Positions 26,627 through 53,013 of a stretch of DNA of 64,000 nt are shown piece by piece. A program made the position numbers and the translations under genes. Under the pieces are notes generated by a model. The model did not search any database, had not been told where the DNA came from, and worked only from the letters and a program-made list of their open reading frames with translations. Position 1 is the first letter of the stretch. Each line of letters begins with the position of its first letter. The stretch is from a virus. Where the stretch lies: positions 1-64,000 of the IMG/VR virus record IMGVR_UViG_3300021963_000077; one strand, given 5' to 3'.

Positions 26627-27931
26627 TTAGGCTTCTGGAGCGGCGTCAAATGTGACGCTGACAAATGCCTCTGGGCGCTTGACTGCGAGAGCCAGTCTCT
26701 GTTCTGCGAGAACAACGATTGCGTTGCGGACGAAGAAGTCTGCATGCTGTTCGCTCACGCGGATAGTTGCCTGCTCGCGGTCATACAGCTGAGCACCGGT
26801 GCCGAAGGCGCCGACGAGAGCTGTACCCTCTGGCATTGCTGGTGTGTCAATGACCGGAATTCTCCACAGCTTCGGCTCGCCACCCATGGCAACCGAAACA
26901 GCGATGAGGTACTGGCCGTTGAGGTCCTTGGTCAGCTCGATGTCTTCCCAGTCGTTCGGGTTAAGAACGATACCGGTTGGCTCGTAGTAAGCGAGCAACG
27001 ACAGCGTAGCTGCACGACGGAGTGCATCTGCCTTTGTGTCTGGTACTGGAGTTGCTGCGCCATCTGACCAGTCGTAGGTCTGGATGCCAGGTGTCTGAAG
27101 AACACCCTGCAGGTTTTCACCAGTGCCGTCACCGTTGAGGATTTGATCATCCTCTTCAAGGCGCAAGCCGTACATGAGCTCGTTGTCAATGATTGAGCGG
27201 AGCTGTGGCTCGTCAGCAAGGACGTTGCGGTGAGCAGCTTCCCAGTGAGCGAGTGTACGTACAGGAGCCTGCTCACCAACGAAGGTGAACGATGACTGTG
27301 GCTTAGCAGTGAATGCTGCACCAGTGCGCTCTGCTACAGGAGCAGCGTTGTTCGTGAAGCCAGTCATGCGGAAGTACTCAATGACAGCAGCTGTCGTGGT
27401 ACGAGCCGGGAACAAGTCACGGACGCGACGTGTGCGCATCGGTGGGATGACAATCGGATCACGCTGAATGGTGCCGAATGAGCCAGGTGTGCCGGTTGGA
27501 AGCGCTGAGTAAACATCCTTCACTCCGTAGGAGGTGATGTTTGAAGCGTTCAAAACGAACGGTGCTGGCATGTTTGCGCCATTCTTGCCACCATTGAGTG
27601 ACTTGAACTCTGGTGAATCTACGAATGCCTGACCGACAGACGATTTGTGGACTGGTGCAAAAGACTGACCAGCAGCAAAAGCGGCAGCTGCTGAATCGCC
27701 AGCTGGCTGCGTGCCCCACTCGTCAACCTTCTTCATCTGCTCAAGACCCTCGATGAGGCCCTTGATTTCACGGATGTCTGACATGTTGCGGTCAAAGGCT
27801 GACTTCTGATCAGCATTGACGATAACGGTGCCATCTTCTACACGGAATGAATCGGCAATTTGCTTATTCTCCGCCATTTTTGAACGAAGCGCGCCCTGGA
27901 GCTCACTTAGTCTTGATTCGTCAAAAGACAT
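26627..27931 (-). CDS. major capsid protein, HK97 fold with N-terminal delta/scaffold domain
   Basis: RVRDLF, APVAE...KPQS, EDDQILNGDGTGENLQG, NPNDW...KDLNGQY, LWRIPV, FVRNAIVVLAEQRLALAVKRPEAF; start MSFDES after AAGGGAG. Confidence 0.95.
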   Translation of the reverse strand: MSFDESRLSELQGALRSKMAENKQIADSFRVEDGTVIVNADQKSAFDRNMSDIREIKGLIEGLEQMKKVDEWGTQPAGDSAAAAFAAGQSFAPVHKSSVGQAFVDSPEFKSLNGGKNGANMPAPFVLNASNITSYGVKDVYSALPTGTPGSFGTIQRDPIVIPPMRTRRVRDLFPARTTTAAVIEYFRMTGFTNNAAPVAERTGAAFTAKPQSSFTFVGEQAPVRTLAHWEAAHRNVLADEPQLRSIIDNELMYGLRLEEDDQILNGDGTGENLQGVLQTPGIQTYDWSDGAATPVPDTKADALRRAATLSLLAYYEPTGIVLNPNDWEDIELTKDLNGQYLIAVSVAMGGEPKLWRIPVIDTPAMPEGTALVGAFGTGAQLYDREQATIRVSEQHADFFVRNAIVVLAEQRLALAVKRPEAFVSVTFDAAPEA

Positions 27932-28064
27932 TTCTTTCTCCCTTGAGAAAAATTTATGGATTGGTATTTTGAGCGACACAGGCGGCTTAGGTAAGCACCC
28001 AGCCCTTACGTCAAATAACAATCTAACAGACTTTATATAGTCTGTAGTGAAAGGTAATAGATAT

Positions 28065-49714: not shown

Positions 49715-49939
49715 TTACTCAGAAATGATTTCTTCTGATGCAGAGGTTTCTTCTGTAGCAACTTCTTCAACTGCATCCGCAACTTGTGGCTCCGCAACTG
49801 CCTCTGCGACCGCCTCTTCAACAGCTTCAACCTTAGGTTCACGACGCTTTCTCGTCTTAAATTCCTTTAGTTCTTCTGCCTTATTTTCAACAGCGATCAT
49901 AAATCCAGCGGGTCCTGGTTGTGACTTCTTCTTCATCAC
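49715..49939 (-). CDS. small Glu/Ala-rich protein
   Basis: 74 aa coupled to upstream stop. Confidence 0.55.
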   Translation of the reverse strand: MMKKKSQPGPAGFMIAVENKAEELKEFKTRKRREPKVEAVEEAVAEAVAEPQVADAVEEVATEETSASEEIISE

Positions 49940-51348
49940 TTCTCCGTTTCGTCAACGCCGTGCTCAGTTGCGAGCATTTCAAATTCCATTAGAGATGCAA
50001 GGAAGCTTGCTTCTTCAGACTTTTCTCCGCCAGAGAACTTCTTCTTAACATCTTCTGGCACCCAATTACTAGGAATGAGTTCGTCAAGACCGAGCGACAT
50101 GGCTCGCTTCATGATGTGAGCCTTCGTGGCTTCTTTGTCCTTTGCGCGGCCATATGCCTGAACTGCGTTCCTAAGGTCGGCTTCATCCTTAATTGGGTAT
50201 GAACCATCTGGTAAGGCATAGCCTTGCTTGGCCATTGACATTCTTGACTCTTCGCTGTAAGCACGCTTGAGCGCAATCTCCGCTGCCTCTGCTTCTATTT
50301 CTGAAGCTTCTTCCTGCGTGTACTCGTCGTAACCAAGAATTTCGCCAGACAATGAAACAAAGACATCATATGACTTTCCGTCAATGCCCTCTATCTCAAC
50401 TGCATAGCTGTCGTATCCCTCAAAGATGTCTGGCTCAATTGCAACAACATCGCCCATAACGCTCTTTGTTGCGATATCTGCTGCTTCCTCAAAGCCAATC
50501 ATCTTGTTGCCCTCAAGGGCCGACTTGACTTGAAGTACATCCTGATTCAAAAGCTGCCATCCGAGGCACTCACCGGTCTCGCCGTCAAAAAATGCCTCAA
50601 CAGGACGACCGTCTTTGCGCTCAATGTCAACAACAAATAGGTCAGCCTTGTCGGAGAATCCAGAATCAAGGACTTTGCCACTAAACATATCTTCAGCAAT
50701 TCCTTCAATTTCAAGAAGACCAGGCATTGAACCCTCAGATACGCAGCCGCCTGGGCAGTTATCGCAAACCGAGGACCCACCAGGATAAACCTTGCGCTCA
50801 AATGCGCACATGAAAGCTTCCTCGTCAAAGTCAGCTGACTTATAGCCCATTGAGTTCATACGGCGCATACGCATCTTCTTGCGCATGGCGACCATGTCTA
50901 CTTCTTCTTCTTCTTCTTCGTCTTCGTCTTCGTCTTCTTCTGACATTTCATCAGATTCTTCTTCAGACTCGGCATCCATGGACTCGTCGTCCATCTCTTC
51001 CTCGTCGTCCATCTCGTCTTCGTCTTTTTCGGCCATGAACTCAAGGATCGCTTTTACATAAGCATCATCGTCCATATCTTCATCGTCAAGTTCTTCACCC
51101 ATGGCCATGTAGTCTTCAACCATTTTCTTTGGGGTCTTCTTCTTGCGGACTGGAGCCATTGGCATTGCGTCCTCATCGTCCTCGTCTGAGCCCCACATGT
51201 ATCCACCCTTGACAGATGTAGCCATAGCTCCGCACTTTCCGCAGACCTTTGCGCCGGGCTCATAGCCACATTCAGATAGATCTAGACCCTTGGCACACTG
51301 GATGATTTCACCGTCTGCATCTAGTTTGACTATAGCTTTTTCGTCCAT
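49936..51348 (-). CDS. acidic head-locus protein with two PepSY-like domains and C-terminal ALPDGSYPI domain
   Basis: TAATG-coupled start MDEKA; Cys clusters; IGFEEAADIA...YAVEI...YDVFVSLSGEIL; ALPDGSYPIKDEADLRNAVQAYGRAK. Confidence 0.7.
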   Translation of the reverse strand: MDEKAIVKLDADGEIIQCAKGLDLSECGYEPGAKVCGKCGAMATSVKGGYMWGSDEDDEDAMPMAPVRKKKTPKKMVEDYMAMGEELDDEDMDDDAYVKAILEFMAEKDEDEMDDEEEMDDESMDAESEEESDEMSEEDEDEDEEEEEEVDMVAMRKKMRMRRMNSMGYKSADFDEEAFMCAFERKVYPGGSSVCDNCPGGCVSEGSMPGLLEIEGIAEDMFSGKVLDSGFSDKADLFVVDIERKDGRPVEAFFDGETGECLGWQLLNQDVLQVKSALEGNKMIGFEEAADIATKSVMGDVVAIEPDIFEGYDSYAVEIEGIDGKSYDVFVSLSGEILGYDEYTQEEASEIEAEAAEIALKRAYSEESRMSMAKQGYALPDGSYPIKDEADLRNAVQAYGRAKDKEATKAHIMKRAMSLGLDELIPSNWVPEDVKKKFSGGEKSEEASFLASLMEFEMLATEHGVDETEK

Positions 51349-51542
51349 TACGACTCCTTGTATTGCATTGACTTTGTCAGGCAACCTTTGGGATTAGTGC
51401 ATCCTCCACATGGTTGCATTCTTTTTTCGCCTGTAACCATGCAGTGATACTTATGTTGAAGATTGTTTGAACCTATTGGTTTAGAATAACCCATTTGAGC
51501 CCCACTCTGTGGGTACTTTGGTGATTTCTTATTCTTTGCCAT
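51348..51542 (-). CDS. small Cys-rich protein
   Basis: YHCMVTG...PCGGCTNPKGC. Confidence 0.6.
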   Translation of the reverse strand: MAKNKKSPKYPQSGAQMGYSKPIGSNNLQHKYHCMVTGEKRMQPCGGCTNPKGCLTKSMQYKES

Positions 51543-51586
51543 GTGGATCAAAATCCTAATCTGTATAACGACTGGATCATTTTATA

Positions 51587-52660
51587 CTAACCCGAATACC
51601 GTAGCTTTGGTGGCTTCTTGATCCGAGGTCTAGCTTTTTCAGCATTCCTCAATGCTTCGAGCATTTTGGCTCTGTTGATCTTGACATCCACGATTCGCAT
51701 ACCAAATTTTTCAGCTGCTTCCGCCTCGGAGTGATTGCTGAGGTAGAGCAAGAAGCTTTTCGCATTGGGTGTCAATACTTGTGGATGATTATTAATTAAA
51801 TTAATGATTTCTGTATTAACGCCTTCTAGTTTCTGATCTGCTTCAGTATCAATGATGCGATTGTCTGGAGTGTTGAGATTAAATTCTTCGTTATATCGTT
51901 TAATAAATTTACCGACTAACGCTTGGCTAACTTTTAAAGCCTCAGCAATTTTTTCGTATGATATTCCGTACTGTGAAAAAGTGTACATTAATTGACCTTT
52001 TTCCAGAGACGATAAATCACTTAACCCAATGTCAAAATCCCTTACAGATCTGTCCACGGTTGATTTGTCTACACCGAATGCCTTGGAAACTTCATCTTTG
52101 CTAAATCCATATTTTCTAGCAACTGAAATAATTTTACGCTTTTGCTTAAAAACGCTTCTAGCAGAAATGTTATTTTTTTTCAAAACGACAGAAACATAGT
52201 CGCTTGTCACTCCAACATCCTGCGCAATTTGATTTGGCCCAATGCCGAGTCTTGCCTGTCTTACGATTTCTTTGATGCGCCCGCTGCGATCCACATTTGA
52301 AGTGCTTACATTTCCTAGCTTTTGTTTATTACGTGAGGCGCGCCTAACGGTCGCAATGCTTACTCCATATTTCTTAGCTAGGGCTTTTGCTATCTCGGCT
52401 CGCTCTTTTGGAGTTTTGCCTTTGGCTATTTCTTCGGCCATTTCGTTGCTTCTACGCTCAAATTCAGCTACAGAAGATGCTTGGTTTACAGTTCTTCCCA
52501 CTCCTGTAGTCATGCTTCCGGAGACCGCGCGACGAACTGAGGGTCGTTCAAACTGTGTTGCGTCTTGAATTAGGCCGTCGCCGTCACCATCAAATGCGTT
52601 TGAATCAAACCTATCGGTAAGGCGCCCTAGGCGGCGTGCGTCGCCTGTGCGCCTCAGGCT
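51587..52660 (-). CDS. multi-HTH protein with N-terminal DGDxDG tag, probably expressed as -1 frameshift extension of 52654-53013
   Basis: Frame open from 52666 with tag RFDSNAFDGDGDGLIQDATQFERP upstream of first ATG (52513); about five HTH-like repeats. Confidence 0.7.
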   Translation of the reverse strand, partial: SLRRTGDARRLGRLTDRFDSNAFDGDGDGLIQDATQFERPSVRRAVSGSMTTGVGRTVNQASSVAEFERRSNEMAEEIAKGKTPKERAEIAKALAKKYGVSIATVRRASRNKQKLGNVSTSNVDRSGRIKEIVRQARLGIGPNQIAQDVGVTSDYVSVVLKKNNISARSVFKQKRKIISVARKYGFSKDEVSKAFGVDKSTVDRSVRDFDIGLSDLSSLEKGQLMYTFSQYGISYEKIAEALKVSQALVGKFIKRYNEEFNLNTPDNRIIDTEADQKLEGVNTEIINLINNHPQVLTPNAKSFLLYLSNHSEAEAAEKFGMRIVDVKINRAKMLEALRNAEKARPRIKKPPKLRYSG

Positions 52661-52666
52661 TTTAAA
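52620..52666 (-). other. programmed -1 ribosomal frameshift signal
   Basis: T TTA AAA heptamer (52666-52660), 5-nt spacer, stem AGGCGC/GCGCCT enclosing AGGCG/CGCCT. Confidence 0.75.
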
Positions 52667-53013
52667 TCAAGACCGCTAGCAACAGACTTGACTACAGCAC
52701 TAATTGCATCTATTGCGTCTTCGTCCAGGTAATCCATATCCTCGATAACTAAAGACTTTGTTTCCTGCTGTATGGAAACACCGTAGTAATCAAGCACGGG
52801 CTCAAGAAAAGATTTAGCCCCCATCAGGGCCTCGTCGTCGCCAGTAATCACAAGGTTTACCTTGTTCTTGCCGCCATCAGATGAATCTATGACTTCCGCC
52901 AAAAGCTCTAAGGCTTGTCTTAATTTGCCCATATTCCTGTTGCTAATAACGCGACCACTCTTTACGTCAATGTCGTTTCCATATGGTGTTGAAAGAAAAA
53001 TTTTAGTTTCCAT
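52654..53013 (-). CDS. 119-aa head-locus protein (0-frame product)
   Basis: TAATG-coupled to protease stop; VKSGRVISNRNMGKLRQA motif typical of head scaffold segments. Confidence 0.7.
   Translation of the reverse strand: METKIFLSTPYGNDIDVKSGRVISNRNMGKLRQALELLAEVIDSSDGGKNKVNLVITGDDEALMGAKSFLEPVLDYYGVSIQQETKSLVIEDMDYLDEDAIDAISAVVKSVASGLDLKA

Follow-up and report, generated by a model that had tools for sequence, protein, structure and literature searches.

In the sequence IMGVR_UViG_3300021963_000077 of the IMG/VR database, which stems from an uncultured aquatic phage, an open reading frame (ORF) of 119 amino acids (aa) very probably ends in a conserved programmed -1 ribosomal frameshift. Through this site, a minority of ribosomes would continue into a downstream frame that lacks a start codon and encodes a short peptide, the DGD tag, followed by a cargo protein with multiple helix-turn-helix (HTH) domains. 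In tailed phages, programmed frameshifting is textbook matter where tail chaperones are concerned, and capsid extensions made in this way are known as well; new here would be its use to dose a passenger that is internal and tag-addressed and is made from an assembly domain associated with the protease. If true, the amount of DNA-binding cargo per virion would follow a simple genetic rule, and the DGD tag would be supported as a working module that is kept under protein-level selection where only recoding reaches it. It would also be a warning for annotation: gene callers place the start of the cargo gene at an internal Met or Val and so mis-start it in every relative. The natural signal is compact, consisting of a heptamer and a hairpin of ~40 nucleotides (nt). 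Below, "the window" denotes the whole stretch of DNA that was analysed, i.e., the 64,000 nt at positions 1-64,000 of the record; the feature region spans 51587-53013, and coordinates refer to the window.

Reading frames and putative frameshift signal

The elements of the junction are, in order of translation:

53013..52654, minus strand: 119-aa ORF (0 frame) with ATG at 53013..53011; fold not assigned
52669..52667, minus strand: TGA of the -1 frame directly 5' of the heptamer, closing this frame upstream
52666..52660, minus strand: slippery heptamer T_TTA_AAA in X_XXY_YYZ register (Leu117-Lys118 of the 0 frame)
52656..52654, minus strand: 0-frame stop TGA, two codons past the slip site
52656..52618, minus strand: G+C-rich stem-loop, probable frameshift stimulator, with an outer stem of 8 pairs and an inner stem of 6
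52636..52541, minus strand: basic stretch and DGD tag (RRLGRLTDRFDSNAFDGDGDGLIQDATQFERP) in the -1 frame, one of six tag copies in the window
52528..52511, minus strand: AVSGSM linker, a putative processing motif, whose Met is encoded by the ATG at which the 308-aa ORF is called
52513..51587, minus strand: multi-HTH cargo, the 308-aa ORF from ATG 52513 to its stop at 51589..51587, recognized by domain matches

The ATG of the 119-aa ORF overlaps the TAA stop of an upstream 985-aa protease ORF as TAATG, and its 3' end reads ...GGT CTT GAT TTA AAA GCC TGA. Upstream of the TGA at 52669..52667, the -1 frame holds many stops of all three kinds, which led us to reject a change of genetic code with recoded stops. 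From the start of the heptamer, this frame reads FKSLRRTGDARRLGRLTDRFDSNAFDGDGDGLIQDATQFERPSVRRAVSGSM... and runs without a stop into the 308-aa ORF, staying open for 359 codons counted from TTT, and the two other frames are closed by 3-5 stops within the 49 codons that follow the slip site. The earliest ATG, GTG or TTG of the open frame is codon 51, past the tag. As tag and cargo thus have no initiation codon of their own, the slip would be their only route of synthesis, with a predicted fusion of 118 + 357 = 475 aa. A sequence-only reading of the window had pointed out the T TTA AAA within the terminal GAT TTA AAA GCC TGA, the -1-frame TGA right before it with the open frame behind, a GC-rich hairpin about 5 nt past the heptamer, and an intact tag 5' of the first ATG in a fusion of about 475 aa; all of these hold in the window.

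The window hairpin has a minimum-energy fold of -22.6 kcal/mol (z = -2.0), and 7/200 shuffled sequences fold equally well. Its stem begins 3 nt past the heptamer, with 5-6 nt to the first G-C pairs. A scan of 52450-52800 against Rfam at E ≤ 1 returned no family. Taken alone, the 9-mer TGATTTAAA is unremarkable, occurring twice in the window against 1.05 expected; the signal exceeds chance because of its position and conservation and not because of the bare occurrence of this 9-mer.

Behind the slip site, the -1 frame encodes the basic stretch, the tag RFDSNAFDGDGDGLIQDATQFERP, the linker AVSGSM and the HTH protein in this order. The tag motif occurs six times in the window, in five ORFs and the start-less frame, always on the minus strand and between the protease and capsid genes; one copy sits at the extreme N-terminus of a 341-aa ORF. 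Domain matches of the cargo include HTH_23 (8.5e-16), HTH_28 and Sigma70_r4_2, among others.

Conservation of the junction

Related loci were collected by scans of IMG/VR and JGI metagenomes, and five of them reach the junction:

L001: 94% protein identity to the 119-aa ORF; junction identical to that of L002
L002: 94% protein identity; contig stops within the cargo
L010: 83% protein identity; cargo with an extra module
L011: 55% protein identity; contig stops 11 codons past the site
L012: 55% protein identity; 32-kb contig

All five carry a 119-codon ORF coupled to the end of the protease polyprotein, split frames and a -1 frame that continues SLR..., and the heptamer T_TTA_AAA is invariant in the six separately assembled sequences formed by the window and these loci. 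The surrounding block GATTTAAAAGCCT[G/A]AGG is likewise kept in 6/6. In the loci long enough (L001, L002, L010 and L012), the -1 frame reaches the DGD tag without a canonical start. Where contigs extend, this frame is open for 359-507 codons; L002 and L011 run off their contigs earlier. The sequence-only reading had named conservation in relatives as a check, and across 55-94% identity the split frames and heptamer are indeed kept in 5/5 loci and the hairpin in 4/4 that can be folded. Its TGA directly before the heptamer proved less general, being present in the window, L001, L002 and L010 and absent in L011 and L012, where 10 codons of the -1 frame, none of them a start, are open ahead of the heptamer. 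In L011, the 0-frame stop is TAA instead of TGA, a change that keeps both the stop and the -1-frame Leu and turns a CTG into CTA.

Two comparisons bear on selection at the nucleotide and protein levels. Between the window and L012, 21/64 codons for the same residue are identical (0.33), with synonymous sites near saturation, and the terminal codons GAT TTA AAA GCC are identical in 4/4; the chance of this from the phage's codon usage is 0.574 x 0.122 x 0.538 x 0.141, i.e., ~0.005. Over the 49 codons from the slip site to the linker Met, differences at positions 1/2/3 of the -1-frame codons number 7/1/12 between the window and L001 and 6/4/17 between the window and L010. This bias towards third positions indicates that the tag stretch is translated in the -1 frame and is under protein-level constraint.

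A hairpin is found at the same position in 5/5 folded sequences (window, L001, L002, L010 and L012; L011 is too short to fold), with energies of -18.9 to -23.8 kcal/mol, z of -1.8 to -3.9 and a start 3-6 nt past the heptamer. The outer stem is common to 4/5, the inner stem differs, and the stems of L012 are largely different in sequence. The peptide encoded at the hairpin is the least conserved part of the stretch (TGDAR, IGGAGQ, PIGANGR). Taken together, the four sequence-level features of -1 frameshift signals are all present: heptamer, structure, start-less ORF and synonymous-site conservation.

The cargo varies while the junction persists: the cargo of L012 is 26% identical to that of the window, and L010 (3501-4868) has an extra module of ~350 aa between AVSGSM and a second linker, VVSGSM, before the HTH block. 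This linker-bounded module suggests that cargo is swapped in units delimited by the linker motif.

The length of the 0-frame product is also conserved. Five clusters at 90% identity come from other DNA; their proteins are 67-91% identical and without exception 119 aa long, two further cluster rows being the window's own 119- and 128-aa readings. Four of these clusters, seen as proteins of 91, 76, 72 and 67% identity, end in DLKA, DLKA, NLKA and NLKV, respectively, and a 31%-identical homologue of 121 aa terminates in NLKA. The Logan contig X1, with a depth of 52.6, reproduces the sequence without gaps and may stem from the source sample. No match to the junction stretch was found among GenBank phages by blastn in distant mode, no relatives in IMG/VR protein-pattern scans with P0002, P0011 and an alignment of P0052-P0054, and nothing in a scan of genome contigs with alignment A8.

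The same 17-base junction occurs at 897-913 of an unrelated contig, L098 (IMGVR_UViG_3300010856_000080, 4333 bases). There, a 302-aa ORF with a GCSGxP chymotrypsin-like motif ends in NLKA, and a 539-codon -1 ORF opens one codon before the heptamer. By its sequence, L098 looks like an RNA-virus protease/polymerase -1 frameshift with the same U_UUA_AAA.

In-frame counterparts and protease context of the 119-aa domain

An exhaustive HMMER search yielded 46 representative homologues of the 119-aa domain (E ≤ 1e-3), 12 of which extend at least 160 aa past it. In eight of these 12 (P0010, P0019, P0024, P0025, P0027, P0041, P0043 and P0046), an in-frame DGD lies 25-64 aa behind the domain and is followed by long, varied sequence; the other four show short multi-stretch matches without a tag. 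Domain, tag and cargo are likewise in frame in L090-L092 from IMG/VR. The trans-frame products of the window, L001, L010 and L012 align colinearly with these in-frame proteins, also across the junction: opposite the slip-site Lys stands the conserved Lys of K-[S/A/G]-[L/I/V] (KSL in P0024 and P0027, KAI in P0010, and KAV, within EEKAV..., in the window's 985-aa protein), and basic stretch and tag follow. Fusion of domain, tag and cargo is a natural architecture, and distant phages encode the same order in one frame. As a side observation, P0019 (777 aa) has no protease part and comprises two copies of a ~170-aa module, the domain, HDGDGDG and a long tail, indicating that the domain-tag unit is not confined to protease genes.

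A pattern scan of IMG/VR gave 80 domain loci. In 74 of them the domain shares one ORF with a VWGH[N/D/S]W protease motif; of the remaining six, three are cut at the 5' edge of the locus and three belong to the window's clade, with the domain in an ORF of its own. The sequence-only reading had spoken of a "head protein", which can be refined from this co-occurrence to a domain that is normally attached to the prohead protease. In the window's clade, the domain has become a separate, stop-start coupled gene. At 73 loci it forms the C-terminal end of its ORF (0-39 residues past the match), with no DGD tag within 700 nt downstream in any frame and a next gene with an ordinary start. As a negative control, we asked for an X_XXY_YYZ heptamer in the last 20 codons plus a long start-less -1 ORF. 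Two of the 78 IMG/VR loci with a complete domain-ORF end combine both, L014 and L015, which are the same contigs as L001 and L002 of the window's clade.

Within the 985-aa protein, residues 345-533 are a half-copy of the domain that lies directly before the protein's own in-frame DGD tag (hhalign probability 97.9%) and lacks the KAGRVISNRNM helix. Copies of the domain before the tags of the 1445-aa and 917-aa proteins were also considered and rejected, hhalign finding none.

The domain has no family in Pfam or PHROGs. Its best hits in a profile search of the PDB have E of just 0.16 and 0.99, and its scores in the ESM Atlas (≤0.77) are at chance level. An AlphaFold model, with a mean predicted local distance difference test (pLDDT) of 60.6, is too poor for a fold search. 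A complex prediction for the capsid protein with the domain scored 0.00; run without controls, it is no evidence either way.

The second TGATTTAAA of the window, at 53056-53064 on the minus strand, contains the heptamer T_TTA_AAC in register in the 985-aa frame. The stop of this frame follows 15 codons later, and the 128-aa reading of the next ORF is its -1 frame. Use of this heptamer would restore the protease-domain fusion of other phages. We rejected this site (TGATTTAAAC at 53064..53056) as probable chance, because L001 and L002 have GAC TTA AAC there; TAATG stop-start coupling is the likelier way for ribosomes to reach the 119-aa ORF.

Alternative explanations

Could the frame change be real and yet come about by another kind of recoding, through slippage of the RNA polymerase on TTTAAAA or through a shift or hop by +2? 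The target frame alone does not tell the route, -1 and +2 leading to the same frame. The runs here are T3 and A4 only, and known polymerase-slippage sites have ~7 or more identical bases. The heptamer also stands in the exact X_XXY_YYZ register for a tandem slip, with the hairpin at the usual distance, and we regard other recoding as very improbable.

Production of the cargo mainly from the internal ATG 52513, untagged and with the upstream tag unused, seems to us very improbable. In its favour, the window and L010 share an ATG at this codon, where L001 and L002 have GTG. This codon is, however, the M/V of a recurrent [R/K]-[I/V]-S-G-[S/A]-M linker motif, and it has no usable ribosome-binding site (GGAAG lies 1 nt upstream). 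The first start in L012 is located 70 codons further down, inside an HTH, and the protein-level constraint on the tag speaks against an unused tag.

Tag and cargo might instead be started independently at CTG 52657, at another non-canonical codon or by re-initiation after the TGA. The window, L001, L002, L010 and L012 do carry a CTG in the -1 frame, four codons into its open part. The sequence-only reading had itself named a start at this CTG, or a single continuous ORF in reads or relatives, as an observation that would speak against a frameshift. The CTG start is ruled out by L011, which has CTA in its place; moreover, the CTG has no Shine-Dalgarno-like sequence upstream, and several genes of the phage have GGAG-type sites. 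No other near-cognate codon between the opening of the frame and the tag is common to the relatives, and the K-S-L peptide, upstream of any such start, aligns with the in-frame homologues. An independent start thus appears highly improbable.

Least credible is that the split reflects damage, i.e., an assembly error or an inactivating 1-bp indel that left tag and cargo as a decaying remnant: the distant relatives listed above do have the parts in one frame, but no close relative has a single ORF, the same split recurs in the six separately assembled sequences down to 55% (domain) and 26% (cargo) identity, the downstream frame stays open over its 359-507 codons with third-position-biased change, and both the uniform 119-aa length of the five clusters and the gap-free contig of depth 52.6 argue against a local error.

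A conserved programmed -1 ribosomal frameshift is hence the reading that we consider very probable. Several points weigh against it. Statistics for the hairpin are modest, with z = -2.0 in the window and -1.8 in L012 (13/200 shuffles as good), and the RNAalifold consensus of 15 pairs has double changes in 2/15 and a covariation term of -0.08. The spacer is only 3 nt in the minimum-energy fold. The clade is small, with about 3-4 independent lineages, given that L001 and L002 are near-identical and L011 is short. Independent contigs X4, X5 and X6 do not span 52567-52762, and the spanning X1 is possibly from the source sample. The domain has a poor model (pLDDT 60.6) and no Pfam, PHROG or PDB match. 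Finally, the signal is read from the sequence.

Proposed mechanism

We propose that most ribosomes on the 119-aa gene would stop at the TGA and release the free domain ending in ...DLKA. A minority would pause at the hairpin with tRNA-Leu on UUA and tRNA-Lys on AAA, slip back one base to UUU AAA and go on in the -1 frame. The resulting 475-aa product would consist of the domain, a K-SL junction, the basic stretch, the DGD tag, the AVSGSM linker and the multi-HTH DNA-binding cargo. This fusion would enter the procapsid along with the free domain and other tagged proteins, where either the domain or the tag may be the docking element. The S78 prohead protease would then cut it, with probable sites at the SGSM linker and between K and S, and the HTH cargo would be released within the head.

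The K-S-L junction resembles a boundary in the capsid protein, EFK-SLNGG, ~110 residues in, and the maturation cut of HK97 gp5 lies between K and S. These likenesses suggest that the S78 protease may cut at the junction. The 0-frame product terminates one residue past the slip-site Lys. By the logic of Gag-Pol, slip frequency would fix the ratio of cargo-bearing to bare domain, and it is plausible by this analogy that the frameshift sets the cargo copy number.

A broader and more doubtful idea is that a large group of aquatic phages uses the junction behind the protease-associated domain as a general cargo port. Lineages would then differ only in metering, with all copies loaded where the fusion is in frame, or with recoding (on T_TTA_AAA here) at the Lys codon of the K-S cleavage site, giving a Gag-Pol-like dosing of DNA-binding proteins that are delivered with the genome. 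Were this tentative proposal true, anything attached via the DGD tag would be built into the procapsid, and the bare 0-frame product would resemble a fusion that has already been cleaved.

Comparison with known systems

The best-known relative in mechanism is the -1 frameshift of the tail assembly chaperones of double-stranded DNA phages, represented by lambda G/GT (PMC5221750, PMC7230728). As in these accounts, ribosomes would slip by -1 at a conserved site close to the end of a short ORF and give a major short and a minor long product at a fixed ratio here, with a start-less ORF downstream. Unlike in lambda G/GT, the protease and a cargo predicted to be packaged flank the site, which belongs to the head module, and the proteins are unrelated. 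Its location between the portal and protease genes on one side and the capsid gene on the other is not that of a tail chaperone.

Extension of a head protein by frameshifting is known from 10A/10B of phage T7. Lactobacillus phage A2, with gp5A/5B, and Listeria phage PSA provide further cases (PMC5221750). In these phages, recoding takes place in the head gene cluster and yields two forms of one structural protein, as would be the case here. There, the 0 frame encodes the major capsid protein itself, and what is added is short or decorative; in the window, by contrast, a separate gene encodes the capsid protein, and the extension comprises the tag and a DNA-binding protein of 300 aa. The site is thus no capsid extension, with the capsid protein encoded at 26627..28021 and the 119-aa protein matching no family.

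In the Gag-Pol -1 frameshift of retroviruses and totiviruses, a minority of the assembly protein is fused to a passenger, which is built in at a set ratio and then released by the protease of the particle itself. By analogy, the phage system would also make a minor fusion of an assembly domain to a non-structural passenger. It differs in belonging to another virus realm and in its unrelated proteins, and for the phage, packaging and cleavage are predicted.

The nested protease/scaffold genes lambda C/Nu3 and Mu I/Z offer another parallel, as their C-terminal part is also made separately from an in-frame internal start. Similarly, the C-terminal part of a protease gene occurs here as a separate small protein; unlike in lambda and Mu, it is a separate stop-start coupled ORF, a scaffold role of the 119-aa domain being hypothetical. 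Escherichia coli dnaX, which encodes tau and gamma, uses the heptamer A_AAA_AAG with an upstream Shine-Dalgarno-like element, and its -1 shifted product is the shorter one. Shared with dnaX are the bacterial-type -1 slip, the occupation of the A site by a Lys codon and the hairpin that follows, whereas here no clear upstream Shine-Dalgarno-like element is present and the shifted product is longer.

With regard to the tag, the closest systems are the capsid targeting sequence of T4 and the ejection proteins of SPN3US and phiKZ, which are cut by the prohead protease (PMC9958956, PMC5694885, PMC7411985, PMC10052503). As in these systems, unrelated proteins carry a common short address sequence that is trimmed by the prohead protease, the trimming being predicted in our case; one short sequence is indeed found on several unrelated head-module proteins of the window. 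Unlike the present tag, those tags are leaders at the N-terminus, encoded by genes that have starts of their own, and involve no frameshift; the DGD tag has a different sequence and is often internal. Motif-level hints (K-[S/A/G]-[L/I/V], EFK-SLNGG) suggest that the DGD tag may direct packaging and be removed by the prohead protease.

A search of the published literature, supplements not covered, found no frameshift that leads out of a scaffold or protease domain into capsid cargo; frameshifts that did turn up concerned tail proteins or capsid extensions.

Genomic setting

The IMG/VR record behind the window has 89,510 bases, is linear and is estimated to be 60% complete. Pieces at least 99% identical are present on contigs from runs labelled marine, estuary, aquatic and freshwater metagenomes. 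On the minus strand, the head genes follow the order portal, protease, 119-aa ORF, 308-aa ORF, ~25 kb of large ORFs and capsid:

58304..56064, minus strand: portal fused to a Mu-F-like domain (PF04860, 7.3e-50)
55970..53013, minus strand: 985-aa prohead protease (Peptidase_S78) polyprotein, the upstream gene (phrog_80, 3e-26)
28021..26627, minus strand: HK97-like major capsid protein (phrog_10, 4.2e-70; HK97 gp5 chains, E 1e-58)

The 985-aa polyprotein comprises an N-terminal Peptidase_S78, DUF6321, its own DGD tag and sigma-70-region-4-like HTHs. The capsid protein has an N-terminal extension of ~110 aa (residues ~31-145 of the listed ORF), with a likely start at MSFDES... and an end at EFK-SLNGG, which is a candidate delta-domain cleavage site with the K-S-L of the junction.

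Downstream of the cargo, a Cys-rich ORF of 67 aa (51348-51551, minus strand) ends in TAATG, overlapping an ATG (MDEKAIVKL...) that is preceded by an AAGGAG site. The acidic 482-aa protein at 49936-51384 (minus strand) is listed with a TTG start, which, in view of this ATG and its AAGGAG site, is probably 12 codons early. In L004, the counterparts of the 67-aa ORF and the 482-aa protein share one frame.

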